DNA from: a virus
DNA length: 64,000 nucleotides
Virus record (IMG/VR): IMGVR_UViG_3300048625_000156
Location: 30,808 to 94,807 of that record
Strand: one strand, 5' to 3'
Below are positions 1,121-64,000 of this stretch, piece by piece. How positions within the stretch are numbered: the first letter of the stretch is position 1; each line of letters starts with the position of its first letter. Below the pieces are notes generated by a model. It saw only the letters and a list, made by a program, of their open reading frames with translations. It was not told the DNA's origin and did no database searches. A program made the position numbers and the translations under genes.

Positions 1121-1643
1121 TGACAATTGTGATTGTCTCCTGGTTCTTGGCAATGTCAGAGAGTCGTCTCATAATCTTGTCACGGATCTCTGGGTGCTCG
1201 GATGCGATGTCTTGCAGGATTCCCTTGAGGATGTCCTGCTTGCGTTCAATCTCTACCATCTCTTCTGCTAGCTCTTTGTTCTCAAGTAGACCAGCCTTCT
1301 GCAGCATGTCAATACGCTTTGACTCAATGTCCAGGACCAGCTTGATACCAGCAGTCTTTGCACTTAGATTGGCAGTAGTGGTAGCGTCATCGATAACCTC
1401 ATATGCTTTATTAATTAGTTTGTTATAGTGGGTGTCTGCAACCACAAGTGCCTCTTTAGCACGAGCACGGATTGCAGCATTGTCTGCAGCCATGAGCTTC
1501 CACTGATTGATGTGAGCAACAACCTTGGTGCGTGGAAGAGCAAGCTCTTTTGAAATCTGAGTAGGCTCTGCCCCTTGTAGATACTTCTCTACAACCTTGT
1601 TAATTTCATCAAGGTGTTCTACTGTTAAATCTTCTAGTGACAT
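1110..1643 (-). CDS. Probable terminase small subunit / HTH protein
   Basis: N-terminal HTH-like segment (PTQISKELALPRTKV), helical, directly upstream of terL. Confidence 0.55.
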   Translation of the reverse strand: MSLEDLTVEHLDEINKVVEKYLQGAEPTQISKELALPRTKVVAHINQWKLMAADNAAIRARAKEALVVADTHYNKLINKAYEVIDDATTTANLSAKTAGIKLVLDIESKRIDMLQKAGLLENKELAEEMVEIERKQDILKGILQDIASEHPEIRDKIMRRLSDIAKNQETITIVNVQ

Positions 1644-1942
1644 TATGCCTTCTTTGCTTTCTTAACTCTACGCTTAGGTATACGCTTAATGCGGTCAAGT
1701 GAGAAGGATCTGAATGCCCCCACTTGTCCACGGTGAACTTCGTGGCAATCAACCCAGGTAGCCCCAGTCTTTGTGTTAGTTGTAATGCTGACAAACTTGA
1801 AACGCATTCCATACTCACCCACGACCTTGATAAGGTCTCCAGTTTCAATTGTAAAGTTTCCAGACTCCATCTCGTATACACGAGAGAAGATGACAGGTGG
1901 AGGAGTGAGTGTGCTTGCAATAGTAGTTTTACGTCGTGCCAT
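1643..1942 (-). CDS. Hypothetical protein (basic, SH3-like)
   Basis: ORF coupled to neighbours by overlapping stop/start. Confidence 0.7.
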   Translation of the reverse strand: MARRKTTIASTLTPPPVIFSRVYEMESGNFTIETGDLIKVVGEYGMRFKFVSITTNTKTGATWVDCHEVHRGQVGAFRSFSLDRIKRIPKRRVKKAKKA

Positions 1943-2094
1943 TATCTTTTAGACTTCCTTAATCCGAACTTAGCTAAATAGACGTAGATAGTTTCTACGC
2001 TAGTACCGCACTCCTGTGCAATCTGCTCAGGGGTTTTCTTATCCATATGGTATCTCTTTTTTAACCATACCTCACTAGTATACAGCTTAGCCAT
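1942..2094 (-). CDS. Small HTH DNA-binding protein (50 aa)
   Basis: Manual translation MAKLYTSEVWLKKRYHMDKKTPEQIAQECGTSVETIYVYLAKFGLRKSKR; fills the gap exactly with TAATG overlaps. Confidence 0.75.
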   Translation of the reverse strand: MAKLYTSEVWLKKRYHMDKKTPEQIAQECGTSVETIYVYLAKFGLRKSKR

Positions 2095-2657
2095 TACTTT
2101 GTCAACCTTTCCCAGTTATTAATTGCGTAGTGTCCAATACCAATAGCATCTGCTACGTCGTTATCTTTAACAATCCTATCATACTGCACCTCAATGAAGT
2201 GGATAGTTTTTTGTTTGCGTTGTTCTCTTAGCTGAGTCTTAATCCAAGAGTCAGACTTACCTGGGTTCTCTAGTTTCATCTTGGTGATCTCTTCCTTGCT
2301 TGGCTTCTTATTGCCAATGAAGTTCTGCCAGGTAATTGGTGCTACTGATCTAATTACAGGCACTCCTAATGCCCCTAACAATGCCCCCTGAACTAGTGCA
2401 AGGTCTGCAGCAGTCTTAGGGCTATTCATAAACACCGTATGCTCAATCACAATGGCTTCGATGTCAATGTGCTTAGAGAATCCACGAATCTTTTTAGCAG
2501 CGTCTACGACCTTGCTGTAGGCTGTAAGTCCAGTGAAGTTAATCTTTCCATATGACTCAAGCTTTCCATCTACAAAAATTGAGAAAGCAAGGCTATTAGT
2601 GCTAGCATCGATTGCCATGATAGATTTTGGGATGCTTACGAGATTACTCAGTTTCAT
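2094..2657 (-). CDS. RuvC-like Holliday junction resolvase
   Basis: IMAIDAS, IVIEH and DVADAIGIG RNase H-fold acidic motifs. Confidence 0.8.
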   Translation of the reverse strand: MKLSNLVSIPKSIMAIDASTNSLAFSIFVDGKLESYGKINFTGLTAYSKVVDAAKKIRGFSKHIDIEAIVIEHTVFMNSPKTAADLALVQGALLGALGVPVIRSVAPITWQNFIGNKKPSKEEITKMKLENPGKSDSWIKTQLREQRKQKTIHFIEVQYDRIVKDNDVADAIGIGHYAINNWERLTK

Positions 2658-2937
2658 TCCTCATAATCCTTTTAATGTCTTTAAGTGCTTTGGCAACGTC
2701 AATAGGGTTGACATTGCATATAGAACAAATTTCATTATCATTGTAAATGGAAAGATGACTGCCACAAGATTTACAAGCTCTACCTTTAATCCTGCGTTTT
2801 TGTATACGCTTAAGGATATAGTTTTGTGCTATCTTCTCTTTAGTGGCAGCCTCTCTACATTCAGCTGAACAATAAATTTGATAATTTATTTTGGTTTGGA
2901 ATTGGTGGTCACACCATTCACATCGTTTGTGGTTCAT
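2644..2937 (-). CDS. Zinc-finger protein
   Basis: CxxC...YCSxxC...CxxC...CxxC. Confidence 0.7.
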   Translation of the reverse strand: MNHKRCEWCDHQFQTKINYQIYCSAECREAATKEKIAQNYILKRIQKRRIKGRACKSCGSHLSIYNDNEICSICNVNPIDVAKALKDIKRIMRNETE

Positions 2938-3727
2938 CTAAAGGCTCCAGTGATTTAATTTTGATCACTCCAGAACCAGCGTTGTCACAAGCCTCACGGA
3001 TTGGACACGTCTTACAAATCTTTGAGTTAGACCGATAATTCTTCTCAGGCAGTGTCTTGTCTGACCATGCCTTTCGAACAGTTCTCATCCACTCAAATGT
3101 GTTCTCTACCCACTCAAACATGTACTGATTTAATTCTACAGGAAAAATCAACAGTTCGTGATTGTTCTTGTTCTCATAAATCAGAACAGCTCTATTCTTA
3201 TTAAGGATCTTCATGTAGATAAGCAACTGGACCATGTGACCCAGCTTTGGCTTACCTGCCATTTTACGATATTCAAATCCCTCATTAGGCATTGTCTTGA
3301 TCTCACCAAGCAATTCCTTTTCATCCCAGTTGAGCATTACGTCACCATATCCAAAGATAGGTGGATCATTATAAGTAACTTTAAATTCAGAATCAACTAG
3401 AAAGCCTGGAACGTTTCCCATAGCTGCCTGGATACGTTCGTGTGACTTTGTACCAGCAGTCATGTTTGCACCGCCATAGGCATCAGCGTTGTCTGTGAAG
3501 TTTGCACCTTCGAAAGCCAAGTACCAGTAGCGAGGACATTCTCCATGTGAGAACGCAATCGTGCTTGGTGCAAAGGTCTTCTTAGTCTGAAACTTATCTA
3601 CACGATTGATTGTATAACCAGAGTTAATCTTTTCAATCAGTGCATCTTTGTCAAGGAATGATGGACGAGAATTTGGACTCGTCTCAATCTTCTTGAGCAT
3701 TACTTGTTGCAATAGGTTCTTAGCCAT
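2918..3727 (-). CDS. Cas4-like PD-(D/E)XK exonuclease
   Basis: ECPRYW, GTKSHE, GYGD...GEIKT, QLLIY and C-terminal CKTCPIREAC (split Fe-S cysteines). Confidence 0.85.
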   Translation of the reverse strand: MAKNLLQQVMLKKIETSPNSRPSFLDKDALIEKINSGYTINRVDKFQTKKTFAPSTIAFSHGECPRYWYLAFEGANFTDNADAYGGANMTAGTKSHERIQAAMGNVPGFLVDSEFKVTYNDPPIFGYGDVMLNWDEKELLGEIKTMPNEGFEYRKMAGKPKLGHMVQLLIYMKILNKNRAVLIYENKNNHELLIFPVELNQYMFEWVENTFEWMRTVRKAWSDKTLPEKNYRSNSKICKTCPIREACDNAGSGVIKIKSLEPLDEPQTM

Positions 3728-3734
3728 AATAACA

Positions 3735-4040
3735 CTAGCGAGTGATATACTTCAGAGCTGATACGAGGTTATTGATAGCCTCTGCAGCAGTGTAGTATAT
3801 ATTCTTCTTCGCTCTGTCTCCTTTATCTACGTTGGTAAGCCAGGTGGCTTTAAAGGACATCTTCGCAGCAATTGCTTGCAGACGAACGATCTCCACGGTT
3901 GCAACATTTAGAGGTACGTCAGGCTTGATGATAAGCTTGGCAATAAAAGTAAGAGCAGTAGTCAGCTCTTCGTCATTCATGTAGTCAGCAATCTCTGAGA
4001 GACCATTGACCATTTCAATTGTTGTTTGTTGCTGTTCCAT
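3735..4040 (-). CDS. Hypothetical protein
   Basis: ORF with AAGGA SD and upstream TGTATAAT. Confidence 0.7.
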   Translation of the reverse strand: MEQQQTTIEMVNGLSEIADYMNDEELTTALTFIAKLIIKPDVPLNVATVEIVRLQAIAAKMSFKATWLTNVDKGDRAKKNIYYTAAEAINNLVSALKYITR

Positions 4041-4073
4041 TTGTATCCTTAATTGTTGTACTTCTATTATACA

Positions 4074-4361
4074 CTATTCAACGCCGTTAATCAATTGTTC
4101 TAGTACCGACATCTCAATGACTGCTAATCTTGTTTTAATTCCACTTTCACCAATAACCACCACGATTGCAGGATCATTGTTATTACGAATAGCATCAGTT
4201 GTAGCTTTAGCCCAAACCTCTTTATTAAGGGTAAAGGACTTTCCAACTTCTTTAAAATCAACAGTGAAGTTTTCCCAAGTTGCGTCACCCTTATGGGTTC
4301 CTCTACCAGAGTTCTTGTGTTGCTTGGCTCCAATTCGTCTACTCTCGCTCTTCTCGCTCAT
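4074..4361 (-). CDS. Hjc-like PD-(D/E)XK resolvase/nuclease
   Basis: NSGRG..KGDA....VDFKE motif. Confidence 0.65.
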   Translation of the reverse strand: MSEKSESRRIGAKQHKNSGRGTHKGDATWENFTVDFKEVGKSFTLNKEVWAKATTDAIRNNNDPAIVVVIGESGIKTRLAVIEMSVLEQLINGVE

Positions 4362-4524
4362 AAGACTCCTTCTTCTTCTTAGTATTTAAATCGACAACGC
4401 TAACGTGACGATCTGGGCACATCCATGTAAGTCTCTTCTCGCCAGGGTAAGAACGGATGGTTTTGACATCCGCCTTACACTCGTGGCAAGTAAAGTCCCC
4501 ATGATAAATATTATACTTCGCCAT
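4339..4524 (-). CDS. Small zinc-ribbon protein
   Basis: CHEC...CPDRH; coupled to recA. Confidence 0.65.
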   Translation of the reverse strand: MAKYNIYHGDFTCHECKADVKTIRSYPGEKRLTWMCPDRHVSVVDLNTKKKKESYEREERE

Positions 4525-5524
4525 TTACCTTAGCCTCAATAGCTTCCTGAAGATCTAGGTCTTCTCTTACACGATTGACAAATGCATCTCTACCCTGGAC
4601 CTTAGAACCATCAGGAAGGATGTACCAGGCTCCTGTACGCTCTACAATGCCCATCATCTCTGCAGTGTCAACCAAGTCTCCAATGCTGTCAATGCCCACC
4701 ATAGGACCTCTGAAGTAGAAGTCATACTCTCCACTCTGGAAGCCAGGAGAGGTCTTTGAGAACTGAACTTCCCAACGAACCTTACGTCCTACTTTCTCTT
4801 CAATGAGCTTATCGCCCACCGCAATCTTGCCTTTGATAGCCTGATTGTCTGACTCAGATGAGAAAAGTTTAATAACAGTTGAGCTATAGAACTTAGTCGC
4901 TTGACCACCCGAAGGCTGCTGACTTGTATACATAGCACTAATATTATTACGAGATTGACTAATGAGTACAAGCATCGTAGGCTTGACTTTATTATTGGCA
5001 TAGTTGAGCATCTTCCATGCGTTACTAAAGTCTCTAGACTCTGCTCCAATCTGCTTGGTGTTTTCAAGTTCTTTGAGTTCATCTGTACCCTTTTCAAAAT
5101 AGATTGCTGGCAGTAGTGATGTGATTGAGTCAATGGCGATCAGGTCTACCCCTGCATTCATTAGGGCTGTACCAACGTCTACCATCTCGTTGATTGTACG
5201 AGCCTGAGATACGATTAGCTGGTCTGTATTTACTCCAAGAGCCTTAGCCCAGTCTTCAGAATAAGACATCTCAGCATCGATCCATGCACATAGCTTCCCC
5301 TCTTCCTGGGCTTTAGCGACCATCTGAAGGCATAGAGATGACTTAGCTGATGACTTACTGCCCCAGATTAGGATTTGGCGACCATAAGGAAGACCACCCA
5401 GCAATGCACGGTTCATGCCATGACTAGGAGTCTTCTGGAATGTGGTTGTGAATCCCACTCCGTTAGATAGACGCTTACGAATTTTTGGATCTAGCAAAGC
5501 TAGAGCTTCTTCCATAGTTGTCAT
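4511..5524 (-). CDS. recA: RecA/UvsX-like recombinase
   Basis: GGLPYGR, GSKSSAKS P-loop, WIDAE, IAIDSI, GGQATKFYS, GAWY. Confidence 0.92.
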   Translation of the reverse strand: MTTMEEALALLDPKIRKRLSNGVGFTTTFQKTPSHGMNRALLGGLPYGRQILIWGSKSSAKSSLCLQMVAKAQEEGKLCAWIDAEMSYSEDWAKALGVNTDQLIVSQARTINEMVDVGTALMNAGVDLIAIDSITSLLPAIYFEKGTDELKELENTKQIGAESRDFSNAWKMLNYANNKVKPTMLVLISQSRNNISAMYTSQQPSGGQATKFYSSTVIKLFSSESDNQAIKGKIAVGDKLIEEKVGRKVRWEVQFSKTSPGFQSGEYDFYFRGPMVGIDSIGDLVDTAEMMGIVERTGAWYILPDGSKVQGRDAFVNRVREDLDLQEAIEAKVNGEV

Positions 5525-35921: not shown

Positions 35922-37529
35922 TTAATTTGTCGCTCTACCCTCTCCCTGTGGATTTCTCCCAGTGGTTGTGGCTTCCCCATCAGACTGGTTTGCAGTTCTT
36001 TCTGCATCCCTATTACGGTTCTGTTGTGTGTTAGCGTTTGCATCGGCAGCTGCACGAGCTGTAAGCTCTACAGGCTTGTCTCCACCAGCGATGTCTGGTA
36101 GGTTGATCATCTCACGAGCTTCATTAGGAACGATAACCTTGTTGCGGATAAAGCGTTCAATAATTTGTGACTGTGCAACTTCGTCTGTAAGAGTTAGCTC
36201 ATTAAACTTAAGCTCAAGGATATCTGTCTTCTCACGAATGATCTTGTTAAGAATCTTCTCCAGTTTTGTTTGCTCAGGACGAGTTACCTGCTCCTTGAAT
36301 GTGCGGTCTTGTGAGATTGATGCTGCAACTCCTGCTGCATCCCCTCCACCAATCTTTGAAAGTGGAACCTGGTGAGCAACAAGAATATCATCACGGTTTT
36401 GCTTACGGTAGTTGAAGAATGATCCTTCTTGTACACCGCTTTCGATTGGGTCCATTTTAAACTCAACCTTATTGCCATCTGAATCTCCAGGAAGCGGAAT
36501 GTATAGTGTTCTGTGGTTCTGACCCTTAAGACCAGTTTGCAGGAATCTGAATAGCTTATCTTCTGCCTCGGCAGTTAGCTGAGCACCTTTTAGTGTAACA
36601 ATGTAGCGAGGAACTGCCTTGTTCTGGAAGTAGTCAATGTTGTATTGTGATGCAAGTGCGTCTCCAATTAGAGATGGCATTGCGGCTACGATGTCTGGAA
36701 CACCATAGAAAGTATTTAGTGGAGAGTATTCCTTAATGTGAATAATCTCATTTGGACGCTTGTCTCCAGTAATTGGGTTTGGGTTTGTAGCACCAAAGTT
36801 ACGGAAGTATGTGATCTTGTTACCAATCATCTGGACAAAGCCATCATGTAGACGACGGACACGCATTGTTGTAGATGGGATATGACCAACGTAACCAATC
36901 TCACCCTTGATGGTGCGACCGATTTCGATGTAGCCGTTACCAGTTGCATGAATATCTGTGACTACCTTTTCAAGAATGCTGGTAAAGGATTCGTCATCGT
37001 TTAGACTTTCCAGCCAGTCACGAAGCTGTACCTTTAGTCGCTCAATACGCTTACGAGCACGGTCAGCTGAGTCTTTGTCTTCTGCAGACTCAAGTTTGAG
37101 CATTGTCTTGTCGGATACCTTGAAGTCATAACCAAGACCAACGGTGTTCTCTACAACTGCATCAATGGCAGCATGGTTAGCAAATGATGTGTCATAGTAG
37201 TTTGCAAGTTCGTTTAGGTTGTATGGTGGGGTAATTACGTCGAATAGACCGTATGCGTTACGGTAAACGATCCCTGGATTAATTGCTTTAGACTTTGCAT
37301 CCTCTCTACCGCCCTGTACAGCGTTTGCTGAGTCCATGTAAGCGTCTGAGACCTGGTTCTTTGATACCACTCGGTCTGCACGTCGTTTGAAGTTTGCGTC
37401 GATACCTGAAAACTGTCGAACCTCATCCCAGTCTTTGCTGAATAAGTCCATGCTCTTAAAAATATTTTCTTCGACCTGTGGTTCATCCATTCGGATTGGA
37501 ATTGGAATTCTAGTAATTTCGTTAGACAT
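35922..37529 (-). CDS. Portal protein
   Basis: TGNGYIE, NEIIH, YGVP, PNEAREMINLP. Confidence 0.92.
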   Translation of the reverse strand: MSNEITRIPIPIRMDEPQVEENIFKSMDLFSKDWDEVRQFSGIDANFKRRADRVVSKNQVSDAYMDSANAVQGGREDAKSKAINPGIVYRNAYGLFDVITPPYNLNELANYYDTSFANHAAIDAVVENTVGLGYDFKVSDKTMLKLESAEDKDSADRARKRIERLKVQLRDWLESLNDDESFTSILEKVVTDIHATGNGYIEIGRTIKGEIGYVGHIPSTTMRVRRLHDGFVQMIGNKITYFRNFGATNPNPITGDKRPNEIIHIKEYSPLNTFYGVPDIVAAMPSLIGDALASQYNIDYFQNKAVPRYIVTLKGAQLTAEAEDKLFRFLQTGLKGQNHRTLYIPLPGDSDGNKVEFKMDPIESGVQEGSFFNYRKQNRDDILVAHQVPLSKIGGGDAAGVAASISQDRTFKEQVTRPEQTKLEKILNKIIREKTDILELKFNELTLTDEVAQSQIIERFIRNKVIVPNEAREMINLPDIAGGDKPVELTARAAADANANTQQNRNRDAERTANQSDGEATTTGRNPQGEGRATN

Positions 37530-54925: not shown

Positions 54926-55087
54926 ATGAAACAGTTCGGAGTTACACACCTGGAGAAGCAATTCTGCAAATGTTGTGTTATTTTAGCTAATCCTAGAGCT
55001 AAAGTTAAGAAACAGACTGAAAAGTTGATCAAAGAGCAGATGGATGCCTTCCGAAATGACGAAAATCTGAAAAAATTTTCAAATTGA
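54926..55087 (+). CDS. Hypothetical 53-aa protein
   Basis: AGGA SD; MKQFGVTHLEKQFCKCC... Confidence 0.5.
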   Translation: MKQFGVTHLEKQFCKCCVILANPRAKVKKQTEKLIKEQMDAFRNDENLKKFSN

Positions 55088-55296
55088 CAAAAATCTGAAT
55101 ATTTTATAAAGATGAATGATACACGCTATGAAAACAAAACTCAAGATCGAATAGTGAGCACACACCAGGGGCATAGTATCTAGGGACACTACACACCCCC
55201 CTAATGTTATCATTTTGTTACCAAACTAACGGCGTGTCGATTTGATAAATGTCTGTGCCTGTGCTTATAATAGAGGTATAAAGAAAGGAAAAATAA

Positions 55297-55470
55297 ATGT
55301 TCGAATTCAACACAGTAATCATCACCAAGCGAGGTTCTCGTGAGGCAGGTGTATCGTTCTCTGTTCACACATTCAAGGCTACTACCGAGGCAGAGGTAAA
55401 GGCTATTGTTAGCCACCCCTCAATAGCAGGGTGGAAGTATGGATACAGCATTGGCTACGCTAAGATGTAG
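55297..55470 (+). CDS. Microprotein, 57 aa
   Basis: Own promoter, AAAGGA SD; MFEFNTVIITKRG... Confidence 0.75.
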   Translation: MFEFNTVIITKRGSREAGVSFSVHTFKATTEAEVKAIVSHPSIAGWKYGYSIGYAKM

Positions 55471-55518
55471 TTAGATGTCTGCCCCTACTGATACAATCAA
55501 ACTAACAAAAGGAAAATA

Positions 55519-55641
55519 ATGACTACTGCTGAAATGAAACTACGCTATAACGAACTTATGCGAATTGCTAAGTCTGGTGACTATATGTCTATGGCTGAGT
55601 TTGAAGAGTTACTTGCCCTTAGTAAAAAGTTGAAGAAGTGA
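55519..55641 (+). CDS. Microprotein, 40 aa (paralogue of 56202-56324)
   Basis: MTTAEMKLRYNELMRIAKSGDYMSMAEFEELLALSKKLKK. Confidence 0.75.
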   Translation: MTTAEMKLRYNELMRIAKSGDYMSMAEFEELLALSKKLKK

Positions 55642-55775
55642 TTTGACTTCCCCCAGGAAATCTGGTCGGCAAAAATAACGTTTTGGTAACAAACAGTAAG
55701 AAACGCACTAAATGTCCCTAAAATGTCGTAGGGTCATGTTAGACTGTTAGCAACAACAAAGGATAGGAAATAGAA

Positions 55776-55859
55776 ATGAACGAGAAAACCCTAAAGGCTA
55801 TGATGGCTCAGATTGTTCGTGAGAACGCTAAGAAGATTGAAGAAGAAAAGAAAAAGTAA
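55776..55859 (+). CDS. Microprotein, 27 aa
   Basis: MNEKTLKAMMAQIVRENAKKIEEEKKK; own promoter and SD. Confidence 0.6.
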   Translation: MNEKTLKAMMAQIVRENAKKIEEEKKK

Positions 55860-55930
55860 CGGCGTGTCGATACCGTTAAATGTCAGACCCTCGTGCTAAA
55901 ATAAACTAACAAACAAACAAAGGACACTAA

Positions 55931-56131
55931 ATGAAAATCTCAAAGACTGCTCGCCAGAACTACATTCTTCTTGCCCTCGCTGGTATCTTCTTCTTGCTCG
56001 CTAAGGGTGGCGTTGATGACATTGCCAAGAATGGCGTTGAGGGCTTCGGTATCTTCTTCGTAATGATTGGTGGCTTGGCTATGGTTTGCTTCCTCATTGC
56101 CCTAATCGTTCGTATCTGGGACGCTGAGTAA
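55931..56131 (+). CDS. Two-TM membrane microprotein
   Basis: Own promoter, AAGGA SD, two hydrophobic helices. Confidence 0.8.
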   Translation: MKISKTARQNYILLALAGIFFLLAKGGVDDIAKNGVEGFGIFFVMIGGLAMVCFLIALIVRIWDAE

Positions 56132-56201
56132 ATGTCAGTGGTACTTGGTACACTTATCCTATTAGTACTCTTCATGTTGATAAACCAGTAAAGGAAAAAG
56201 A

Positions 56202-56324
56202 ATGTCAGTAGAACAGAAACTTAGAATGAAAGAACTTATGTGGATTGCTCGTGAGGGTGACTACATGAGCCAAGCAGAGTTTGATGAACTCTCTATGCTA
56301 ATCAAGATGAATGACTATAAGTAG
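56202..56324 (+). CDS. Microprotein, 40 aa (paralogue of 55519-55641)
   Basis: MSVEQKLRMKELMWIAREGDYMSQAEFDELSMLIKMNDYK. Confidence 0.75.
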   Translation: MSVEQKLRMKELMWIAREGDYMSQAEFDELSMLIKMNDYK

Positions 56325-56514
56325 TCTAATCACTTTTCTTGGGCGTGTCGCTTGACATTCCCTTGAAAAAGTGCCGACCAAAATTTTTGATCTTTGTCAA
56401 GCTTATTTTGGTAACAATTTCGTTATAATTATTTTCCCAAAACACCCCAAAATGTCCATAAAATGTCGTAGGTGCGTGTTAGTATATATACATAACAAAG
56501 AAATGAGAAATGAA

Positions 56515-56724
56515 ATGAACAACCTTCCAAAACTAATCGAAGCAAAAATTGACGCTTGGTCTTCTGTCTTCTCTGATGACGCTTCGTGTGTCAAGCGTGA
56601 TAATGACTACTACAACTCTCTAATCGCTAGTCAGTCAGAATACACTGATGAAGAAGTTTCTGCCTTTGCCAGCCAACTTTGGAATGGTGAAAAGACTAGG
56701 GCAGAACTTAGAATGTCTGCCTAA
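56515..56724 (+). CDS. Hypothetical early protein
   Basis: Start moved to MNNLPK, downstream of promoter 56464. Confidence 0.7.
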   Translation: MNNLPKLIEAKIDAWSSVFSDDASCVKRDNDYYNSLIASQSEYTDEEVSAFASQLWNGEKTRAELRMSA

Positions 56725-56778
56725 TCAATGTCAGTGGCTACTGATAAACTTATAACAACAAAAGAAATGAGAAATAAA

Positions 56779-56922
56779 ATGGAAAAACTAGTTTGTGTAT
56801 TTTGCGAAAACATCTATGAGGCAGGAACATTCGTCTGCCCTGAGTGTAACGAATACAAAGGAATGATGACTATCACTGACGCTTCTAAGGAGTATGACTT
56901 CTTAGAGTATCTAACCGAGTAA
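56779..56922 (+). CDS. Zinc-ribbon microprotein
   Basis: MEKLVCVFC...CPEC. Confidence 0.75.
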   Translation: MEKLVCVFCENIYEAGTFVCPECNEYKGMMTITDASKEYDFLEYLTE

Positions 56923-57094
56923 TCGGTGTGTCGGCTTGACAGCTGCCCCGAAATCTGGTCGGCAAATTTTTTGGCTTTTGTCAAGCTTTTTAGATAACAA
57001 TTTCGTTATAAAAACTTTTCAGTTTTACGGCGTGTCGGTTATAAAATGTCGGTGGGTGGGTGTATACTGATAGTATCAAAAGAAATGAGAAATA

Positions 57095-57253
57095 ATGTAT
57101 CCAGATAAAGACCTAACCCCTTGTGAAAAGTGTGGCTCGCTTGGCAAAGTTGTAGTAGACATTTGGAGCGTTCCGTTTTTTGCTCACAAAGTCCCTAGCA
57201 CTCGTATCGCAGGATACTTCACTTTTGTTAGCGAATGCGTTACCAAATCGTAA
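57095..57253 (+). CDS. Microprotein, 52 aa, CxxC
   Basis: MYPDKDLTPCEKCGSLG...; own promoter. Confidence 0.6.
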   Translation: MYPDKDLTPCEKCGSLGKVVVDIWSVPFFAHKVPSTRIAGYFTFVSECVTKS

Positions 57254-57336
57254 TAAAAAACTTTTCACGCTACGGCGTGTCGCAGGGTTAAATGTCAGAC
57301 CCCCCCTGTATAATAGAGGTATAACAACAAAACAGA

Positions 57337-57407
57337 GATACTGAATGAGCCTAGCAGGTGTGAGCCTCGCAAGAGCAAATAAAACCCCTAGCAAATAAGT
57401 CAGTATC
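57337..57407 (+). ncRNA. Rod-like leader RNA with two nested UGAGC/CAAAUAA internal loops
   Basis: GATACTGA/TCAGTATC outer stem; CTAG/CTAG; CTC-GCAA-GAG apical GNRA hairpin. Confidence 0.55.
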
Positions 57408-57433
57408 AACCCTAATAAAGAAAAGAGAAATAA

Positions 57434-57664
57434 ATGGAAATCGGAACCAAAATCAAGACTCACGACAACGGCTACTTTGGCAAGATTGTGTCGCTTGACC
57501 CTATCCGCTTGGGCGTAGTTGCTCAAATCAAGAACAACGTCTTTGGCAAGTCATACATTGCCCTTGCTGCTGAACTTGACGAAACTAGCGACAGCCCAAA
57601 GGGTTTCACTACTATCGTTGCTGAAAATGTTGAGGCACTTCAGGCTCGCTACGCAGTAGCCTAA
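57434..57664 (+). CDS. Hypothetical early protein (beta-rich)
   Basis: ORF downstream of promoter 57293. Confidence 0.8.
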   Translation: MEIGTKIKTHDNGYFGKIVSLDPIRLGVVAQIKNNVFGKSYIALAAELDETSDSPKGFTTIVAENVEALQARYAVA

Positions 57665-57682
57665 TGAGGATGAGGGGGGTAG

Positions 57683-57713
57683 TTATCCACAGCTACCCCC
57701 CAAGTTATCCACA
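57683..57713 (+). promoter_or_regulatory. Tandem perfect DnaA boxes
   Basis: TTATCCACA at 57683 and 57705. Confidence 0.7.
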
Positions 57714-57728
57714 GGGAGCCGACCAGGA

Positions 57729-57744
57729 TCGAACAAACGTTCGA
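57729..57744. promoter_or_regulatory. Actinobacterial LexA (SOS) box
   Basis: TCGAAC-AAAC-GTTCGA, a perfect match to TCGAAC-N4-GTTCGA. Confidence 0.75.
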
Positions 57745-57846
57745 ATGTAACAGTTTGGTAACATCGTTAAGAAACACCCCATAATCTCCCTAAAATGTCC
57801 TACCCCCCTGCTACAATAGAACTATCAACAAAGAAAGGGCAACTAA

Positions 57847-57978
57847 ATGCCAAAGTCACGATACACACTATTTGAATACACGATGAACGGTCAGCAGGTT
57901 GTTTCTGCTATCCACGTCTATGACCTTGGGTCATTCCTGCGTGAACACCCAGAGGCTAAGGTCAAGGTGACTAAGTGA
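57847..57978 (+). CDS. Microprotein, 43 aa
   Basis: MPKSRYTLFEYTMNGQQVV...; own promoter and SD. Confidence 0.7.
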   Translation: MPKSRYTLFEYTMNGQQVVSAIHVYDLGSFLREHPEAKVKVTK

Positions 57979-58103
57979 GAACTATTGAAATCGTTACCCC
58001 AGAGGGTAAAAGTCAAATCCTGGAATACACTGACGGCAACCTGAAATGGGCTAAGAAACTATTTGCTAACGGCTTTCTTCAGTCTTGGGAAATCTTAGAA
58101 TAG
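57975..58103 (+). CDS. Microprotein, 42 aa (GTG start, coupled)
   Basis: GTGA overlap; MRTIEIVTPEGKSQILEY... Confidence 0.65.
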   Translation: MRTIEIVTPEGKSQILEYTDGNLKWAKKLFANGFLQSWEILE

Positions 58104-58133
58104 TTATCCACAGGATGGCGAAAGTTATCCACA
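58104..58133 (+). promoter_or_regulatory. Tandem perfect DnaA boxes
   Basis: TTATCCACA at 58104 and 58125; reversed copies also at 54245 and 58896. Confidence 0.7.
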
Positions 58134-58272
58134 GGTGGTCGGCGGTTTTCGATCTGGATCAGGTTACGAGAGCATTAAAAAATCTCCCAGAAATTCCCAG
58201 AAAGTTACGGCGTGTCTCCCTATAATGTCGGTGGTTACCTGTATAATAGAACTATCAAACAAAGGACAGACA

Positions 58273-58461
58273 ATGAACGAAATGGAAATCAAACTCTACG
58301 ACCTAATGGCACAGGTTGAGGCTAACAAGGGTGGCGATAACGAACAGGCAATGGAAGACATTGGCAACATTCTCACCCTGCTAGAAGTTTTCCACTGGGA
58401 AGACTACAAGCGAATTGTAATCGCTAAATTCAATGTCCCTGCTGACCACTTCGAAGACTAA
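58273..58461 (+). CDS. Hypothetical early protein
   Basis: Start moved to MNEMEIK after AAAGGA SD. Confidence 0.75.
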   Translation: MNEMEIKLYDLMAQVEANKGGDNEQAMEDIGNILTLLEVFHWEDYKRIVIAKFNVPADHFED

Positions 58462-58510
58462 AATGTCGGTGGCTCAGGGTATAATAGAAACATCAACGAA
58501 AGGTAAACTA

Positions 58511-58675
58511 ATGGAATACGGAAAACTGGCAGAACTCGCAAAGATTGTTTTTGGCTATGAAACTATCGAACAGGCAGAAGTTGCTGTTGGCAAACTGCTT
58601 TACTCAGGGTCTAGCGACCAGCAAATCACTCGTCTTGCTGACTTGCTTATCGAAACCATCAAGGAGAATAACTAA
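58511..58675 (+). CDS. Hypothetical early protein
   Basis: Start moved to MEYGKL after AAAGG SD. Confidence 0.75.
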   Translation: MEYGKLAELAKIVFGYETIEQAEVAVGKLLYSGSSDQQITRLADLLIETIKENN

Positions 58676-58869
58676 TGATGACCCGAAAAGACTATGTTGA
58701 AACTGCTCGCATTCTAGCAGGTTTTAGAGAAGACTTGCTATCTATTGGCGATAAGGGTGAGCATATTTTCACTTGTCTAATCGCTGAGTTTGCTGAAATG
58801 TTTGAGAACGACAATGAGCGTTTTCAGGGAGACCGATTTGACGACGCTTGCTGGGAGGGTGGGGAGTAA
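58675..58869 (+). CDS. Hypothetical phage protein (MTRKDY...NERF...RFDDAC type)
   Basis: TAATG coupling, AAGGAG SD. Confidence 0.8.
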   Translation: MMTRKDYVETARILAGFREDLLSIGDKGEHIFTCLIAEFAEMFENDNERFQGDRFDDACWEGGE

Positions 58870-58969
58870 TCCCCTGCCCCCTGGGGTCGGCAGCCTGTGG
58901 ATAACTATTTATGAAGATCCATTTAAGATCCCCAGATTAAATGTCGGTGGCTTGATGTATAATAAGACT

Positions 58970-59140
58970 ATGAAGAAAAGAACTAAGCCAATAAACAATG
59001 TAAACGAAGCAACTCGCAAGGCTCACTCTGCCGAGTTATTTAAGAGTTTGCTACTCACTAAGCACACCGTTGTTGTTCCCGAACACCGCAAGGGAACAAG
59101 GCAGTCTAACATTCGTAAGGCTATCAACGAATCGCTATAA
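58970..59140 (+). CDS. Basic microprotein, leaderless
   Basis: ATG 6 nt after TATAAT; MKKRTKPINN...HRKGTRQSNIRKAINESL. Confidence 0.7.
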   Translation: MKKRTKPINNVNEATRKAHSAELFKSLLLTKHTVVVPEHRKGTRQSNIRKAINESL

Positions 59141-59189
59141 TGTCTGACCCCAATGCTATAATGGTATTACCCAGAAAGAAAGGAACACT

Positions 59190-59285
59190 ATGTTCGAAAA
59201 TGTAATCAACGAACAGGCTATTGCTGACCTTACCCCTGAAGAGGCAGCACAGATAATGGACATTCTAGAGAAAGCAGGATACTAA
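59190..59285 (+). CDS. Microprotein, 31 aa
   Basis: MFENVINEQAIADLTPEEAAQIMDILEKAGY; AAAGGA SD. Confidence 0.65.
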   Translation: MFENVINEQAIADLTPEEAAQIMDILEKAGY

Positions 59286-59503
59286 TGACAGGCTACGTTA
59301 CACGTCAGACTAAGGTTGCTGAGGTTACTCGCTGGAGCGAGGACTACTCAAGTGACATCGGAACAGTATGGTCTGCCGAAAACTTTTTCGGTTTCTACAA
59401 AACCAAGTTGAACGGTAAGACTAAATACTTCAAGGGTGAGATGGCTGAGATGGACATCGAACGCATGTTTCATGATGCTGGAGATTGGAATTGCAGGATT
59501 TGA
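59285..59503 (+). CDS. Hypothetical early protein
   Basis: TAATG coupling. Confidence 0.75.
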   Translation: MTGYVTRQTKVAEVTRWSEDYSSDIGTVWSAENFFGFYKTKLNGKTKYFKGEMAEMDIERMFHDAGDWNCRI

Positions 59504-59661
59504 TGGATGACAGATTCGAACGCCACTTCAATCACGATATTGTTATTGCTAAGTATACTGGTCTGGATGATAAACCAGTAAATTACTCAGTCGAATGTGA
59601 AGACTGCCACGAAGTCATCATTGACGATGAAGCCTTCTTTCAACTAACTACCCCATTCTAA
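59503..59661 (+). CDS. Zinc-binding microprotein, 52 aa
   Basis: MDDRFERHFNHDIVIAKY...VECEDCHEVIID; TGATG coupling. Confidence 0.7.
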   Translation: MDDRFERHFNHDIVIAKYTGLDDKPVNYSVECEDCHEVIIDDEAFFQLTTPF

Positions 59662-59671
59662 GGAACAAACC

Positions 59672-59794
59672 ATGGACGAACAAGCAGCAGAAATTATTGA
59701 AAACCTCAATGAGTACTACGCTAACCCTCAAGACTATTCACTTCAAGACTTGGAGGACATCTTCCAAGACCGTGACCCATTCGAATTCCTTTAG
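59672..59794 (+). CDS. Acidic microprotein, 40 aa
   Basis: MDEQAAEIIENLNEYYANPQDYSLQDLEDIFQDRDPFEFL; AAGGA SD. Confidence 0.65.
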   Translation: MDEQAAEIIENLNEYYANPQDYSLQDLEDIFQDRDPFEFL

Positions 59795-59912
59795 GGGGAT
59801 TCGGTGGGGAGCCGCCGACCAGATCGGCAGCTTTCAATTACGACACGCTTACGAAATCCCTTAAATGTCAGTGGTTGGATGTATAATAGAGTTATCAAAG
59901 AAAGTTGGACTA

Positions 59913-60632
59913 ATGACCCTGATTCGCTCTAAAGACCGTAAAGTTGCTAACCAAGTAAACAAGGCTGGCACTCAAGCAAGTATGGCTAACACTTTTGGAC
60001 TGCCTAGTGGCAAGGCGTTTAGTTGCCCTGGTGCTACTAGCGTATGCGAAACTATTTGCTATGCTGGCAAACTTGAAAAGGTGTTCAAGGGTGTTCGTAA
60101 TGTTTTGGTTTCAAACTATGAGCAACTACTCAATGCTGACTTTACTGGCAAGACTATGCTACTGGCAGAGATGATTCAGGATTTTGTTGCTGAATGCGAA
60201 AAGCGTAATGCCGAAAAGTTATTCCGTATCCACTGGGATGGCGACTTCTTCAATGAGGAATACACTAGGGCTTGGGCAGTAGTTATTCGTATGTTCCCCG
60301 ATGTTCAATTCTGGGCATACACTCGTTCAGACTTTGCTGTTCCAATGCTAATCAACATTCCTAACCTTGCTCTCTACTTCTCTGCTGATTCTGCTAACAA
60401 AACTCTTGCTTGGGAATTGAAGCGTAAGTATGGTGTGAAACTTGCTTATCTTGCTAAAGACTTTGCTACTGGCAAGTCTGACTTCAATGAGCAACAGGAT
60501 AAGTCTGCTGTACCCTGCCCTGAAAACAATCGCAAGTTGGCTATGATTAGCGAAAAGGGTAGTGCTTGTGTTACTTGCTCGCAGTGTGTGTTTGCTCGCA
60601 ATGACATTCTGTTTAGTGCTAGTAAAAAGTAG
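59913..60632 (+). CDS. GP88-like Cys-rich (Fe-S / radical-SAM-like) protein
   Basis: FGLPSG...CPGATSVCETICYA...FRIHWDGDF...FWAYTR...CPE...CVTCSQC; start moved to MTLIRS. Confidence 0.7.
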   Translation: MTLIRSKDRKVANQVNKAGTQASMANTFGLPSGKAFSCPGATSVCETICYAGKLEKVFKGVRNVLVSNYEQLLNADFTGKTMLLAEMIQDFVAECEKRNAEKLFRIHWDGDFFNEEYTRAWAVVIRMFPDVQFWAYTRSDFAVPMLINIPNLALYFSADSANKTLAWELKRKYGVKLAYLAKDFATGKSDFNEQQDKSAVPCPENNRKLAMISEKGSACVTCSQCVFARNDILFSASKK

Positions 60633-60820
60633 ATAGGCTGGCTACCCCGAAAGGGGAGCTGCCGACCACAGATCGATCCAAAAGTCAAATGTTACGATTG
60701 TGTTACGAAACCCCCTAATCACTATTAAATGTCGGTGGTAGCCTGTATAATGGAAACATACAGCAAGAGAGACACAGCAAGAAACAGAAAATAAAAAACT
60801 AAAAAAGTTTGAGAATGTGC

Positions 60821-60849
60821 TTGACTTTTCCCTCTCAACCCTGTATAAT
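60821..60849 (+). promoter_or_regulatory. Canonical SigA promoter
   Basis: TTGACT-17-TATAAT, in tandem after the TGTCGG-type promoter at 60730. Confidence 0.8.
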
Positions 60850-60921
60850 AGAAGTATCAGCAAAAATGTTGGTATAAATAACAAGAAGCAAAGTCCTAGA
60901 AATAGGCAGAAAGGTTCGATT

Positions 60922-61077
60922 ATGTCGAACATCACTATCCCATCTGTTGGCTCGCAGTTCACTACTCAGGCAAGCAAGGTATCTGGAACTGTTCAGGAAG
61001 TTGTAATGAACAAGTCTGGTTCTGCTCGTGTTCGTCTTGATGTAAATGGACAGCCTCGCTGGACAACCATCAAGTAA
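60922..61077 (+). CDS. Small SH3-like beta protein, 51 aa
   Basis: Start moved to MSNITIP after AAAGG SD. Confidence 0.75.
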   Translation: MSNITIPSVGSQFTTQASKVSGTVQEVVMNKSGSARVRLDVNGQPRWTTIK

Positions 61078-61091
61078 TCCACTAGGTGGTA

Positions 61092-61118
61092 ATCCTGAGC
61101 AAGATGAAAAACTGCTCA
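61092..61118 (+). ncRNA. Mini H-type pseudoknot, copy 1
   Basis: ATC-C-TGAGCA-A-GAT-GAAAAAC-TGCTCA. Confidence 0.55.
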
Positions 61119-61191
61119 CCACACCCCCTATAATAAATGTCTCACCCCCCTGCTATAATAGTAGGACAACCCCAAAAGAAAGAAGAACAAA

Positions 61192-61644
61192 ATGGCTCGT
61201 GCCGTATCCGTAAAAATCCCAACCGCTAAGGTCATTGAGTTGATTGAGCAGAAGATTGCCCAGATTGACCAAGATGTTGCCACCTACCCTGCTCGCAAGG
61301 CTAAGTATCAGGCAGACTACAAGGTATACACCGAAAAGGTTGTTGCCACTCTTGCTAAGTTGCTGAAACAAGATGGTTCTGCTCTTCTTGCCGAAGAGAA
61401 CACCGATAAGGGTATTCGTGTTAGCACCAACTACCGCAACGCAGTAGAAATCACCATTGGCAAGGAACTGCTGGACTTGGAAAAGCCAAAAGAGCCACAA
61501 GACCCAGAGCCAAAGGGCTACTACTCACACAACGCATACAGCACCAAGCGTGAAGAGTTGGAAAAGACCCTCCGTCTGCTTCGTATGACCGAACAGGAAA
61601 CTATCACCTCCTCAACCTACAACTCGGTTCTGGAACTGCTGTAA
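61192..61644 (+). CDS. Hypothetical coiled-coil early protein
   Basis: Own promoter; 150 aa. Confidence 0.8.
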   Translation: MARAVSVKIPTAKVIELIEQKIAQIDQDVATYPARKAKYQADYKVYTEKVVATLAKLLKQDGSALLAEENTDKGIRVSTNYRNAVEITIGKELLDLEKPKEPQDPEPKGYYSHNAYSTKREELEKTLRLLRMTEQETITSSTYNSVLELL

Positions 61645-61649
61645 AACCA

Positions 61650-61830
61650 TAGGCTTACGCCTAAACACCTAAGCAAGTGTCTAAAAGGCTTCCCCCATTG
61701 GGTAGAATGGTAATAGTTTGTCTGTTTGATAAAAGGATAAATAGACTTTGGCAGTAGCAAGTAAAAGGTGTTGAGGTAATACTGCTGAGTATAGACACAC
61801 CACACCTGAGCAAGTGTAGTAAAAGGCTCA
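61650..61830 (+). ncRNA. Structured non-coding tract containing pseudoknot copies 2 and 3
   Basis: Pseudoknots at 61665-61691 and 61802-61830; hairpins TAGGC/GCCTA, GTCTGTTT/AAATAGAC, ATACT/AGTAT. Confidence 0.55.
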
Positions 61831-61832
61831 CT

Positions 61833-61868
61833 AATCCCCTTGTGTAATAGCAGGGGGATTTTTCTTTA
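61833..61868 (+). terminator. Intrinsic terminator
   Basis: AATCCCCT...GGGGGATT followed by TTTCTTT. Confidence 0.7.
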
Positions 61869-61983
61869 CCCGAAAATCGGGTCGGCAGCTCTCAAGATCC
61901 GCTTTAAGAATGTGCCAGGAAATCCCTATAATGTCAGTGGTAGGCTGTATAATGGAACTACAACCCAAAGAAAAGGAAAACTA

Positions 61984-62196
61984 ATGTATACATTCCACAG
62001 CCGAAAGGCTTACATCTCGGCAGATGGTTCTTACTCTGCTAATGAGGATACTATCACTTTTGATACTGATGCCCTCACAAATGAGCAATGGGAGATTGTA
62101 GATGACCTTCCAGATTCTATGAAGATGGAATACGCTATCGCTATCCTTGATGGTGATGATGACTTTGTAAACGAAATCGAAAGCGAGTATAAGTAA
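61984..62196 (+). CDS. Acidic early protein
   Basis: Start moved to MYTFHS after AAGGA SD. Confidence 0.75.
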   Translation: MYTFHSRKAYISADGSYSANEDTITFDTDALTNEQWEIVDDLPDSMKMEYAIAILDGDDDFVNEIESEYK

Positions 62197-62513
62197 TGGG
62201 AGCACGAACAGTATTTGAGGTAAAAGACCGTAGTGGAAGCATTTTCCTTTATTCACATTGGGGAGGGGACACTAAGATTGAAGACGCTATTGACGCTCTC
62301 AAAAAGGCAGAGCCACGATGGCAGGATACTACCTATGGTATGCGTATCTTCATTAGCCAGATTGTTGGTGAAGCATGGAAAGATGAAACTGGCTATGGCA
62401 TTTCTGCTGGACATACCTTTGAGGAACAGTATGACCCAATGGTGATTGACTTTGAAACCAATACCGTTACTTATCTTGATGAGGACTTATCGTTCAGAGA
62501 GTTCATCAGTTAG
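62196..62513 (+). CDS. Hypothetical phage protein (MGAR...LYSHWGG type)
   Basis: TAATG coupling. Confidence 0.8.
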   Translation: MGARTVFEVKDRSGSIFLYSHWGGDTKIEDAIDALKKAEPRWQDTTYGMRIFISQIVGEAWKDETGYGISAGHTFEEQYDPMVIDFETNTVTYLDEDLSFREFIS

Positions 62514-62560
62514 ATGTCGTAGGGTGGCTGTATAATAGGACTAACAACGAAAGGAAAGCA

Positions 62561-62707
62561 ATGAGAGCATTTGAGATACTTACAGGCGAACTCGTTTTGG
62601 TTTATGCCGAAACCGAAGATGAAGCAATGGAGAAACTTGGTGAGGGTGAGTATGAGGAAATCGAAACCCTGTCAGAGGTTCAGAGAGAGTATGAGGTGGC
62701 TGAATGA
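62561..62707 (+). CDS. Acidic microprotein, 48 aa
   Basis: MRAFEILTGELVLVYAETEDEAMEKL...; own promoter and SD. Confidence 0.7.
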   Translation: MRAFEILTGELVLVYAETEDEAMEKLGEGEYEEIETLSEVQREYEVAE

Positions 62708-62889
62708 AAACCATTGACGAACTAATCGCATTCTGTAAAGAGAACATTGCTGAGTTAGATAGTTATGTGCTTGATAACGATAGTGATAGCGAATACTTTT
62801 CAGGCGTTCAATCTGCCTATGCTCAGGTTATCCTTTTCCTTACTGGTGAAGAGATAGAGGTTCCCCAAATCCCCTACCCAGAAATGTAG
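62704..62889 (+). CDS. Acidic microprotein
   Basis: ATGA coupling. Confidence 0.75.
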   Translation: MKTIDELIAFCKENIAELDSYVLDNDSDSEYFSGVQSAYAQVILFLTGEEIEVPQIPYPEM

Positions 62890-63016
62890 GGGTGCTGGGC
62901 TGCCGACCCAATTGTAACGATCAGGTTACGAAGCTTACGAAACGGTTCCCCAATCCCTATAATGTCAGTGGTCCACTGTATAATAGAGGTATCAACAAAA
63001 AGAAAAGGAAACCCCT

Positions 63017-63382
63017 ATGAGCCGTGAACGTGGAACCCTTGTCTACAAGATGGACGAGAACGCAACCCTAGCCCTTATCCGTAACAAACTTGGTAAGCCT
63101 GACGCTGACGTAAAGCCAGACATTATGGTTGTTGCTATTGGTAAGAATGGTCCTGCTACTATCTGCCGTGAGGGTGTAGGTTGGTGGGCTGACGCTAATG
63201 GTGGTATCCCTATCAACTTCTATTCTGGTAACTATGGCTCTGGTGGCTTTGTAGATGTTACCGCCGAAGAGTTGTCTGATGTAACTACTGACGAAACTAT
63301 GGACCTTGCTGACTTCATCAACGAGTTTGGCGACCGCCTAGAAACTAACTTCTACCTTTGGCAACAATACATCAAAGGTTAG
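63017..63382 (+). CDS. Hypothetical early protein
   Basis: Own promoter, AAGGA SD. Confidence 0.8.
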   Translation: MSRERGTLVYKMDENATLALIRNKLGKPDADVKPDIMVVAIGKNGPATICREGVGWWADANGGIPINFYSGNYGSGGFVDVTAEELSDVTTDETMDLADFINEFGDRLETNFYLWQQYIKG

Positions 63383-63437
63383 ATGTCGTACCCCCCTGTT
63401 ATAATAGATAGTATCAACCCTAAGAGAAAGAAAGAAA

Positions 63438-63908
63438 ATGGCATTTGACGAAAACGGAAATGTTGTACCTGACCCTATTAGTGCTTCTAGTGTTCTTGGT
63501 GAAGCAGTAAGTGAACACCCTGTACTTACCCCACTGAAAAATCGTATCGCTGAGTTAGAGCGTGAGGTTGAGATTGTCAAGGGTAACTCTGATAACTATC
63601 GCAACCGTTGGAATGAACTCTGTAGCCAACGCTACACGCTTGAGAATGCTCTGCGTACCTTTGTCGAAGATGAAGAGATTGAACTAAGCATTGCTACCCA
63701 GATTGCTGAAATCTTTGACATCACCCTGACCAAGACCATTGACGTTGAACTGACTTTCAAGGTTACCGTTTCGGTTGAGGTTCCTCTCGGTGAAGAGATG
63801 ACTGCTGATGACGTTGCTGACAACGTTAGCATTTCTGTAGACTACTACGGCACAGGGGAGTTGCTTGAAAGCGACAGCGACCTTGATGACTGGAGTGAAC
63901 GTTCATAG
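63438..63908 (+). CDS. Acidic coiled-coil early protein
   Basis: Own promoter; 156 aa. Confidence 0.8.
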   Translation: MAFDENGNVVPDPISASSVLGEAVSEHPVLTPLKNRIAELEREVEIVKGNSDNYRNRWNELCSQRYTLENALRTFVEDEEIELSIATQIAEIFDITLTKTIDVELTFKVTVSVEVPLGEEMTADDVADNVSISVDYYGTGELLESDSDLDDWSERS

Positions 63909-63940
63909 GGGGCTATGAAAACATGCAGTGATATGCATGG

Positions 63941-63968
63941 ACATCCTGAGCATGATGTAAAAAGGCTC
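63941..63968 (+). ncRNA. Mini H-type pseudoknot, copy 4
   Basis: ACATC-C-TGAGC-AT-GATGT-AAAAAG-GCTC. Confidence 0.55.
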
Positions 63969-64000
63969 CTTCTTCATGCCTGGAATTTGCCGACCCCCCC

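Follow-up and report, generated by a model that had tools for sequence, protein, structure and literature searches.

We analysed a 64,000-bp stretch of DNA (hereafter the window) from an uncultured phage, IMG/VR record IMGVR_UViG_3300048625_000156, positions 30,808 to 94,807. In this phage, a block of small early-type genes has been cleared of almost all 4-bp palindromes by selection acting on DNA words, in its open reading frames (ORFs) as well as in its non-coding DNA. The sole exception is a zone from about -40 to about +60 bp relative to a GC-rich core whose sequence is specific to the lineage (here GCCGACC). The avoidance is specific to palindromes, with no general shift in composition, and has two tiers, namely a genome-wide ban list and a longer list that applies to the early block. 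The exempt zone follows the ordinary rule of the late genes, words banned genome-wide still being absent while GATC and AGCT are allowed, and GATC is positively retained there. The reading that we favour, with a probability of about 0.5, is restriction-proofing of early-acting DNA, with an exempt gap between transcription units in which GATC is a working part of the core module.

The record comprises 94,807 bp, of which the window is the last 64 kb, and closes on a 127-bp overlap, corresponding to a genome of 94.7 kb with 43% G+C; assembly would collapse any long terminal repeat. An initial sequence-only reading had confined the depletion to GATC and AGCT and had let the depleted region end at the window edge. 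Both points needed correction: the depletion is general to short palindromes, and the block of small plus-strand ORFs extends past the end of the window by about 5.2 kb, occupying genome positions 1-5200, for a total of 14.1 kb and about 42 small, mostly acidic early-type genes.

Across the whole genome, CCGG, CGCG and GGCC are absent and GCGC occurs once; the 6-bp words CACGTG, CTCGAG, GAGCTC, GCATGC, GACGTC, CGATCG and CGTACG are also at zero. The longer list of the early block became apparent when synonymous codons were shuffled across a set of 41 early ORFs (10.2 kb), a null model in which the encoded proteins and the codon usage are unchanged. Against this null, AGCT was observed 0 times for 59.7 expected, TTAA 3 for 43.3 and GATC 1 for 34.8, so that GATC and AGCT do not occur inside early ORFs at the background rate, and ranks 1-6 in under-representation among the 256 tetramers are all held by palindromes (about 2e-8 by hypergeometric arithmetic). 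In the late ORFs (30 ORFs, 45 kb), zero or near-zero counts are limited to the four palindromes made up of G and C alone (GGCC 0/63.7, CCGG 0/64.1), the observed/expected ratios being 0.80 for GATC, 0.83 for AGCT and 1.17 for TGCA. The early block thus lacks sites that the rest of the genome has and tolerates. When densities are compared, the seven lowest early/rest ratios among 136 strand-merged tetramers again belong to palindromes (TGCA 0.16, AGCT 0.22, TTAA 0.25, ATAT 0.26 and GATC 0.42, followed by AATT and ACGT). The left edge of the block is sharp, at about 55150, with the last TGCA, AGCT, TTAA, ATAT and GATC before it located at 54965-55145. Internally the block is in two parts: nearly all palindromes are gone from its first 10 kb (TGCA 1/19, TTAA 0/30), and its last 4 kb (L009:1300-5200) is still strongly depleted of GATC, AGCT and TTAA but not of TGCA (10/15) or GTAC (11/15). 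A search of the phage for the DNA methyltransferase families PF02086, PF05869, PF01555, PF02384 and PF00145 found none. With early ORFs purged, late ORFs not, and none of these families found, the earlier suggestion that early-acting DNA is depleted of restriction sites fits well.

Direct counting returned the 11 GATC and 8 AGCT sites listed by the sequence-only reading for 55200-64000 (Table 1), and the exact count revealed no others there; both words are common before this region, with 157 GATC and 257 AGCT in the first 55.2 kb. All 19 sites lie within 40 bp of a core and in gaps of the gene models, none being in an ORF. The core itself (GCCGACC or GGTCGGC) is present in 11 copies in 55200-64000 and in none in 1-55199, and the part of the block at genome 1-5200 adds three further cores with the same pattern. 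Over the entire 14.1-kb block, 28 of 29 GATC/AGCT sites are located in spacers, which make up 28% of its length, and 26 of 29 fall within 40 bp of a core, a zone representing 7% of the block and 26% of its intergenic DNA (binomial 1.5e-13). Of the spacers, 13 have a core (2798 bp in total) and together contain 25 sites; the other 15, which have none (1164 bp), contain a single site. Because core-distant intergenic DNA of the block is itself depleted (GATC 1 vs 8.8 expected, AGCT 0 vs 12.9), intergenic composition alone cannot explain the clustering.

The 45-bp flanks of the cores were then compared with dinucleotide shuffles. In this phage they contain 14 GATC for 4.5 expected and 12 AGCT for 3.7, while ten other palindromes displayed no enrichment in the same flanks. 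The four words banned genome-wide (CCGG, GGCC, CGCG, GCGC) are absent within 45 bp of the cores, for about 12.6 expected. The distance from GATC to the core edge varies from 1 to 13 bp, on either side, and no GATC of the block lies within a palindromic hexamer.

The two words owe their presence near cores to different causes. AGCT mostly arises where a motif fixes three of its letters, either as AGC+T in the extended core AGCTGCCGACC, or as A+GCTTGACA, or within TTGACAGCT. The fixed neighbours can be written AGC(T/C)GCCGACC and (A/C)GCTTGACA, AGCT-free relatives having AGCC in the first case and C before GCTTGACA in the second. AGCT near cores is therefore mainly a by-product of fixed neighbour motifs, and no AGCT function is needed. 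GATC has no constant flanking sequence. It is often paired at a spacing of 4-7 bp and often stands 3-5 bp before TTACGA or TTAAGA; some copies arise as TTAAGA+TC, as TTACGA+TC or in the middle of GTAAC-N6-GTTAC. The GATCs at 58151 and 58157 are 6 bp apart and immediately 5' of GGTTACGA. Tandems of the form GATCGATC were seen 18 times in the data set (window 60671-60678, L009:1340-1347 and 16 more in relatives), about 14 of them in early spacers; such a tandem is what fill-in of a 5'-GATC overhang followed by blunt joining would be expected to give, and selection for paired sites would look alike.

Relatives of the phage were gathered through its DUF932 early protein, which has 431 relatives in the viral collection, of which 80 loci (L011-L090) were fetched. 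Word bans among them are all-or-none and lineage-specific. Among the 70 loci of at least 12 kb, CCGG is at zero in 68, CGCG in 59, GCGC in 38, AGCT in 29, GGCC in 20 and GATC in 14; none of the 70 is without TTAA, TGCA, ATAT, GTAC or AATT. Whole records include one 85.6-kb relative without GATC and one 70.9-kb relative without GATC and AGCT, and the whole-record relatives have cores only in an early block poor in palindromes. The lineages that ban GATC or AGCT keep their cores, miss the sites there, and show AGCC where this phage has AGCT. The core sequence varies by lineage (GCCCGACC, GGGGTACCCC, GGGGCGCCCC, GGGGCCCC, GCGCGGCC, TTTTGCGC and GCCGGC). Each related phage has its own GC-rich core, one per early spacer (e.g. 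L021:2190, L014:4589, L078:2916, L037:3554), often built as a G-run, palindrome and C-run such as GGGGTACCCC or GGGGCGCCCC. In one locus (L078), all eight CCGG of 21 kb are found within GCCGGC-type cores. A general rule by which cores would consist of the words that a genome bans was not kept: it suits some loci only, such as L078, and fails for the whole genomes G007, which has CGCG outside cores, and G006, which has GTAC outside cores. An automatic caller of ORFs and cores over the 80 loci was too noisy for statistics and was used only to reveal the variation of cores between lineages.

The GATC excess at cores extends well beyond this phage. All seven GATC-tolerant genomes tested show a 3-6x enrichment of GATC in core flanks against dinucleotide shuffles, with observed/expected values of 14/4.5, 12/4.1 and 13/2.3, and of 5/1.6, 10/2.8, 4/1.3 and 8/1.9 in the four that have other cores. 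When the GATC profile is pooled over 72 cores, its maximum lies at 0 to +20 bp and is about 8x the density in late genes. The spacer immediately upstream of the DUF932 gene is orthologous between loci, and at least one GATC is found in it in 53 of the 54 non-redundant loci that tolerate GATC, a count that is not a true probability since the loci are akin, although their cores and flanks differ widely; 27% of control 200-bp windows contain GATC in the early block and 56% in the other block. The corresponding figure for AGCT in that spacer is 26/40, vs 35%. GATCs are hence clustered and conserved in control DNA; they look selected, in a pattern common to many related phages. The DUF932 gene itself (L009:278-1297, plus strand) is the most conserved early gene, being found in 80/80 loci at 74-84% identity, and its approximately 1 kb contains no GATC, AGCT, TGCA, TTAA, ATAT, AATT, ACGT or GTAC.

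The spacers share a common order, with a stable hairpin (before most cores), the core, host-regulator boxes, TTACGA or TTAAGA repeats, and a promoter. The boxes that follow the cores are paired DnaA boxes, a LexA-type box TCGAAC-N4-GTTCGA, or RTAAC-N6-RTAAC repeats. Five consensus DnaA boxes fall in 57683-58904 (6 in the whole window vs 0.7 expected), and pairs spaced 3 bp apart are seen at genome 5211/5223 and in relatives. Directly after one core, a perfect actinobacterial-type LexA box (57729-57744) is overlapped by the GATC at 57727, and similar LexA-type boxes follow cores in relatives. Promoters of the form TGTCNG-N10-TANNNT number 15 on the plus strand of 55250-62984, and 17 in the whole window vs 2.2 expected. 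The promoters of the block match the architecture of PafBC-dependent promoters, whose consensus in actinobacteria is tGTCgg-N10-tA-N3-T (PMC8635444), which makes them candidates for this class. A second promoter class has a C-run in place of GTGG, for example at 57293 and 59141. A generic scan for sigma-70 promoters and terminators did no better than on shuffles and found only one of the hairpins. A Chi-like role for the cores was rejected, GATC lying downstream along transcription whatever the core orientation and asymmetric cores occurring in both orientations.

The host is probably an actinobacterium, as suggested by the PafBC-type promoters, the LexA-type box and a portal protein (window 35922-37529, minus strand) that is 49% identical to the portals of Streptomyces phages of about 128 kb (Stanwilliamsviridae). 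Through this portal, these phages are the nearest cultured relatives found. A megablast of the whole stretch against the phage collection gave no match, and a search with the tail-fibre protein gave short collagen-like matches only. The terminal region of Streptomyces phage Gilson was considered as a guide to a terminal repeat here and dropped because its gene content differs.

Restriction-proofing would account for these features as follows. By analogy with T5 and Autographiviridae, the block, which probably enters the cell first, would have to function before the anti-restriction functions of the phage exist, and any site inside a transcription unit would therefore be costly. The gap between units, probably untranscribed judging from its hairpins and promoter motifs, would be the sole place where a cut followed by sloppy repair, or a bound enzyme, spares the units; selection would thus protect units rather than the whole molecule. 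Our leading guess, and the most likely option, is that the spacer GATC would be recognised by a host factor of the restriction-modification type, specific for GATC, for which it might serve as a break point, an alarm or a binding site. Several points weigh against this reading. Some relatives share the cores and promoters but have no GATC at all, so that the site is dispensable, and the variable position of GATC relative to the core is a poor fit to one fixed operator. A cut in the gap would still break the genome, so that protecting the units would need repair or a second copy. First entry and early expression of the block are inferred, and the untranscribed state of the gap is deduced from hairpins and promoter motifs only. 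We know of no GATC-reading factor in actinobacteria. Finally, the retention statistics overstate independence, the loci being phylogenetically related.

The sequence-only reading had put forward shielding by a core-bound protein. In a fuller form of this view, the protein (virion-delivered, very early, or a host factor such as DnaA or LexA at adjacent boxes) would cover about 40 bp on each side, leaving uncut sites that are tolerated. The clustering of sites 1-13 bp from core edges, the lineage-specific cores, as would be expected for a co-evolving phage protein, and the DnaA and LexA boxes that abut several cores are all in line with such a protein. We nevertheless regard it as quite unlikely: next to cores, the four banned words are still missing; in addition, other palindromes are not restored in the zone, GATC-free and AGCT-free relatives have no such sites at their cores, and shielding predicts neutral density, not a 3-6x excess or retention in 53/54 spacers. 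The same excess counts against a view in which the sites have no function and are by-products of conserved neighbour motifs and of the concerted evolution of repeated spacers, in hosts that do not cut GATC or AGCT. The origin of most AGCT copies as AGC+T or A+GCTTGACA, with C instead in AGCT-free relatives, that of some GATCs within repeat motifs, and the presence of both words in late genes at 0.8 of expectation agree with this view; yet GATC has no constant flank, is enriched in 7/7 tolerant genomes with four different core sequences and is kept in 53/54 divergent orthologous spacers, and the purge of the rest of the block, including its non-core non-coding DNA, is left unexplained. We consider this account doubtful. 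It is also improbable that the pattern reflects a shared pool of cassettes, in which genes circulate among lineages banning different words, only word-free cassettes persist, and the cores and flanks, being private to a lineage, obey the local rule only. Early ORFs are mosaic, with best matches drawn from many loci with differing cores and bans at 45-95% amino-acid identity, and total bans on GATC and AGCT occur in 14 and 29 of 70 loci; such a pool may hence contribute. However, TTAA, TGCA, ATAT, GTAC and AATT are purged from early ORFs and banned by no locus, no recent transfers were seen (nucleotide identity is at most about 78%), and the GATC excess at cores is not explained. The same identity ceiling led us to reject a recent acquisition of this block from a lineage lacking GATC.

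Sensing of methylation or restriction, which the sequence-only reading had proposed together with decoy sites, is a tentative alternative, with odds well below even. Here the state of the spacer GATC (modified, unmodified or cut) would be read by a host methyltransferase, a restriction enzyme or a methyl-sensitive binder and would tune the core module and the adjacent promoters. Positive retention of GATC, often in pairs, speaks for sensing, and a PafBC-type promoter lies downstream of each spacer. Among the words purged early, GATC and AGCT are moreover the two that are banned across whole genomes in sister lineages; enzymes against both are thus evidently common in the host pool. According to one report, PafBC answers to single-stranded DNA (PMC11804915). 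On the other side, the five Pfam families gave no phage methyltransferase, the same modules are still present in relatives that have no GATC, GATC and promoter are not in a fixed phase (the distance to TGTC is about 16-90 bp by hand count), and the lack of a known reader in actinobacteria applies here too. A related scenario, which we would rate as a long shot, is that the phage exploits host restriction by deliberately placing GATCs at the one point of each early unit where they do no harm. In its cut-alarm version, a cut would be resected to single-stranded DNA, PafBC would be switched on and the downstream PafBC-type promoters would fire; expression of anti-restriction genes would be boosted, and the fill-in scars expected from later end joining would include tandems such as GATCGATC.

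Restriction-proofing of early DNA has precedents in other phages. In T5, restriction sites in the pre-early block are cut and those elsewhere are protected by a pre-early function (bioRxiv 10.1101/866236). The first-step-transfer DNA of T5 may be comparable to the present block in having small pre-early genes that have to act while the remaining genome is still unsafe, and the paired DnaA boxes in its non-coding part (bioRxiv 10.1101/866236) resemble those at 57683/57705 and 58104/58125. In contrast, entry in two steps, a terminal repeat and a stop signal for injection characterise T5, the present case being known from sequence alone; T5 involves one 6-bp site, whereas nearly all 4-bp palindromes are concerned here, and one exempt, GATC-enriched spot per unit, a probable actinobacterial host and PafBC-type promoters are found here. 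In the leading region of Autographiviridae, one study states that only motifs located there decide sensitivity to Type I restriction, motifs elsewhere being harmless, and that this variable region is thought to encode anti-defence genes (PMC12455610). That case differs in concerning one Type I motif tested experimentally, as opposed to many Type II-like words read from sequence, and here a motif is positively retained at defined non-coding spots.

Some phages avoid restriction sites genome-wide, an example being the GATC-free Staphylococcus phage K. The present phage is similar in that short palindromes are absent from a large genome in which no methyltransferase was found (CCGG, CGCG, GGCC and GCGC here, GATC and AGCT in sister phages), but its avoidance has two tiers, with a much longer early-block list and exceptions confined to core zones. 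Functional clusters of GATC read through Dam methylation, such as P1 pac, Mu mom and oriC/SeqA, are likewise closely spaced GATCs in non-coding control DNA kept by selection. Unlike them, this phage has no Dam-type enzyme that we found, and sister phages drop all GATCs and keep the modules; to our knowledge, Dam is not typical of actinobacteria. T4-type PeSL elements are promoter-plus-stem-loop cassettes that flank small early genes and are comparable as repeated terminator/promoter modules between small, highly mosaic early genes, to which the modules described here add a lineage-specific core, host-regulator boxes and a retained GATC.

If the favoured reading is correct, missing short words would mark, from sequence alone, phage DNA that works under active host restriction, and would show which enzymes a phage lineage fears most. 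A family with 431 relatives and absolute, lineage-specific bans would constitute a natural series for the study of the arms race between phages and restriction in freshwater-type actinobacteria. It is unexpected that a word purged from about 10 kb of early coding DNA and banned in sister phages is kept at one set place in each unit. The retained GATC hints that restriction-type sites may serve a phage, and offers a mutable target for testing that idea.

Table 1. Cores with their GATC and AGCT sites, and other early-block features, in window coordinates.
Feature	Coordinates	Strand	Remarks
Palindrome-purged block, window part	55150..64000	+	Small early-type genes; continues to genome 1-5200
Promoters with PafBC-type -26 element and -10 (15)	55250..62984	+	Candidates by motif; each downstream of a spacer
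Core	55664..55670	- (GGTCGGC on + strand)	No GATC or AGCT nearby
Core GCCGACC 56373-56379, GATC 56389, AGCT 56400	56373..56403	+	Core within TTGAC...GTCAA dyad
AGCT 56941 (in TTGACAGCT), core 56957-56963, AGCT 56984 (in GTCAAGCT)	56941..56987	-	
DnaA boxes 57683 and 57705, AGCT 57691, core 57718-57724, GATC 57727	57683..57744	+	
DnaA boxes 58104 and 58125, core 58137-58143, GATC 58151 and 58157	58104..58160	-	
Core 58885-58891, DnaA box (reverse complement) 58896-58904, GATC 58916 and 58927	58885..58930	-	Core after strong hairpin
Core 59814-59820, GATC 59822, AGCT 59829	59814..59832	+	Second half repeats the extended core imperfectly in inverted orientation
GP88 family (PF17338) gene	59913..60632	+	Largest early gene in window; no GATC or AGCT
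Extended core AGCTGCCGACC (AGCT 60657, core 60661-60667), then tandem GATCGATC (60671, 60675)	60657..60678	+	
Terminator-like hairpin 61833-61860, core 61880-61886, then GGTCGGCAGCT (AGCT 61887), GATC 61896	61833..61899	-	
Two adjacent acidic early genes	61984..62513	+	70 aa, pI 4.1; 105 aa, pI 4.4
Core 62902-62908, GATC 62919, AGCT 62932	62902..62935	+	GATC mid GTAAC-N6-GTTAC; AGCT between two TTACGA repeats
Core	63989..63995	+	GATC and AGCT just past window end (genome 132, 157)

Many of the early proteins are strongly acidic. Relatives of the gene pair at 61984-62513 were found in 20/47 AGCT-tolerant loci vs 0/33 of the others, and in 24/65 GATC-tolerant loci vs 0/15, a link confounded by phylogeny that nonetheless makes the two genes candidate anti-restriction genes.

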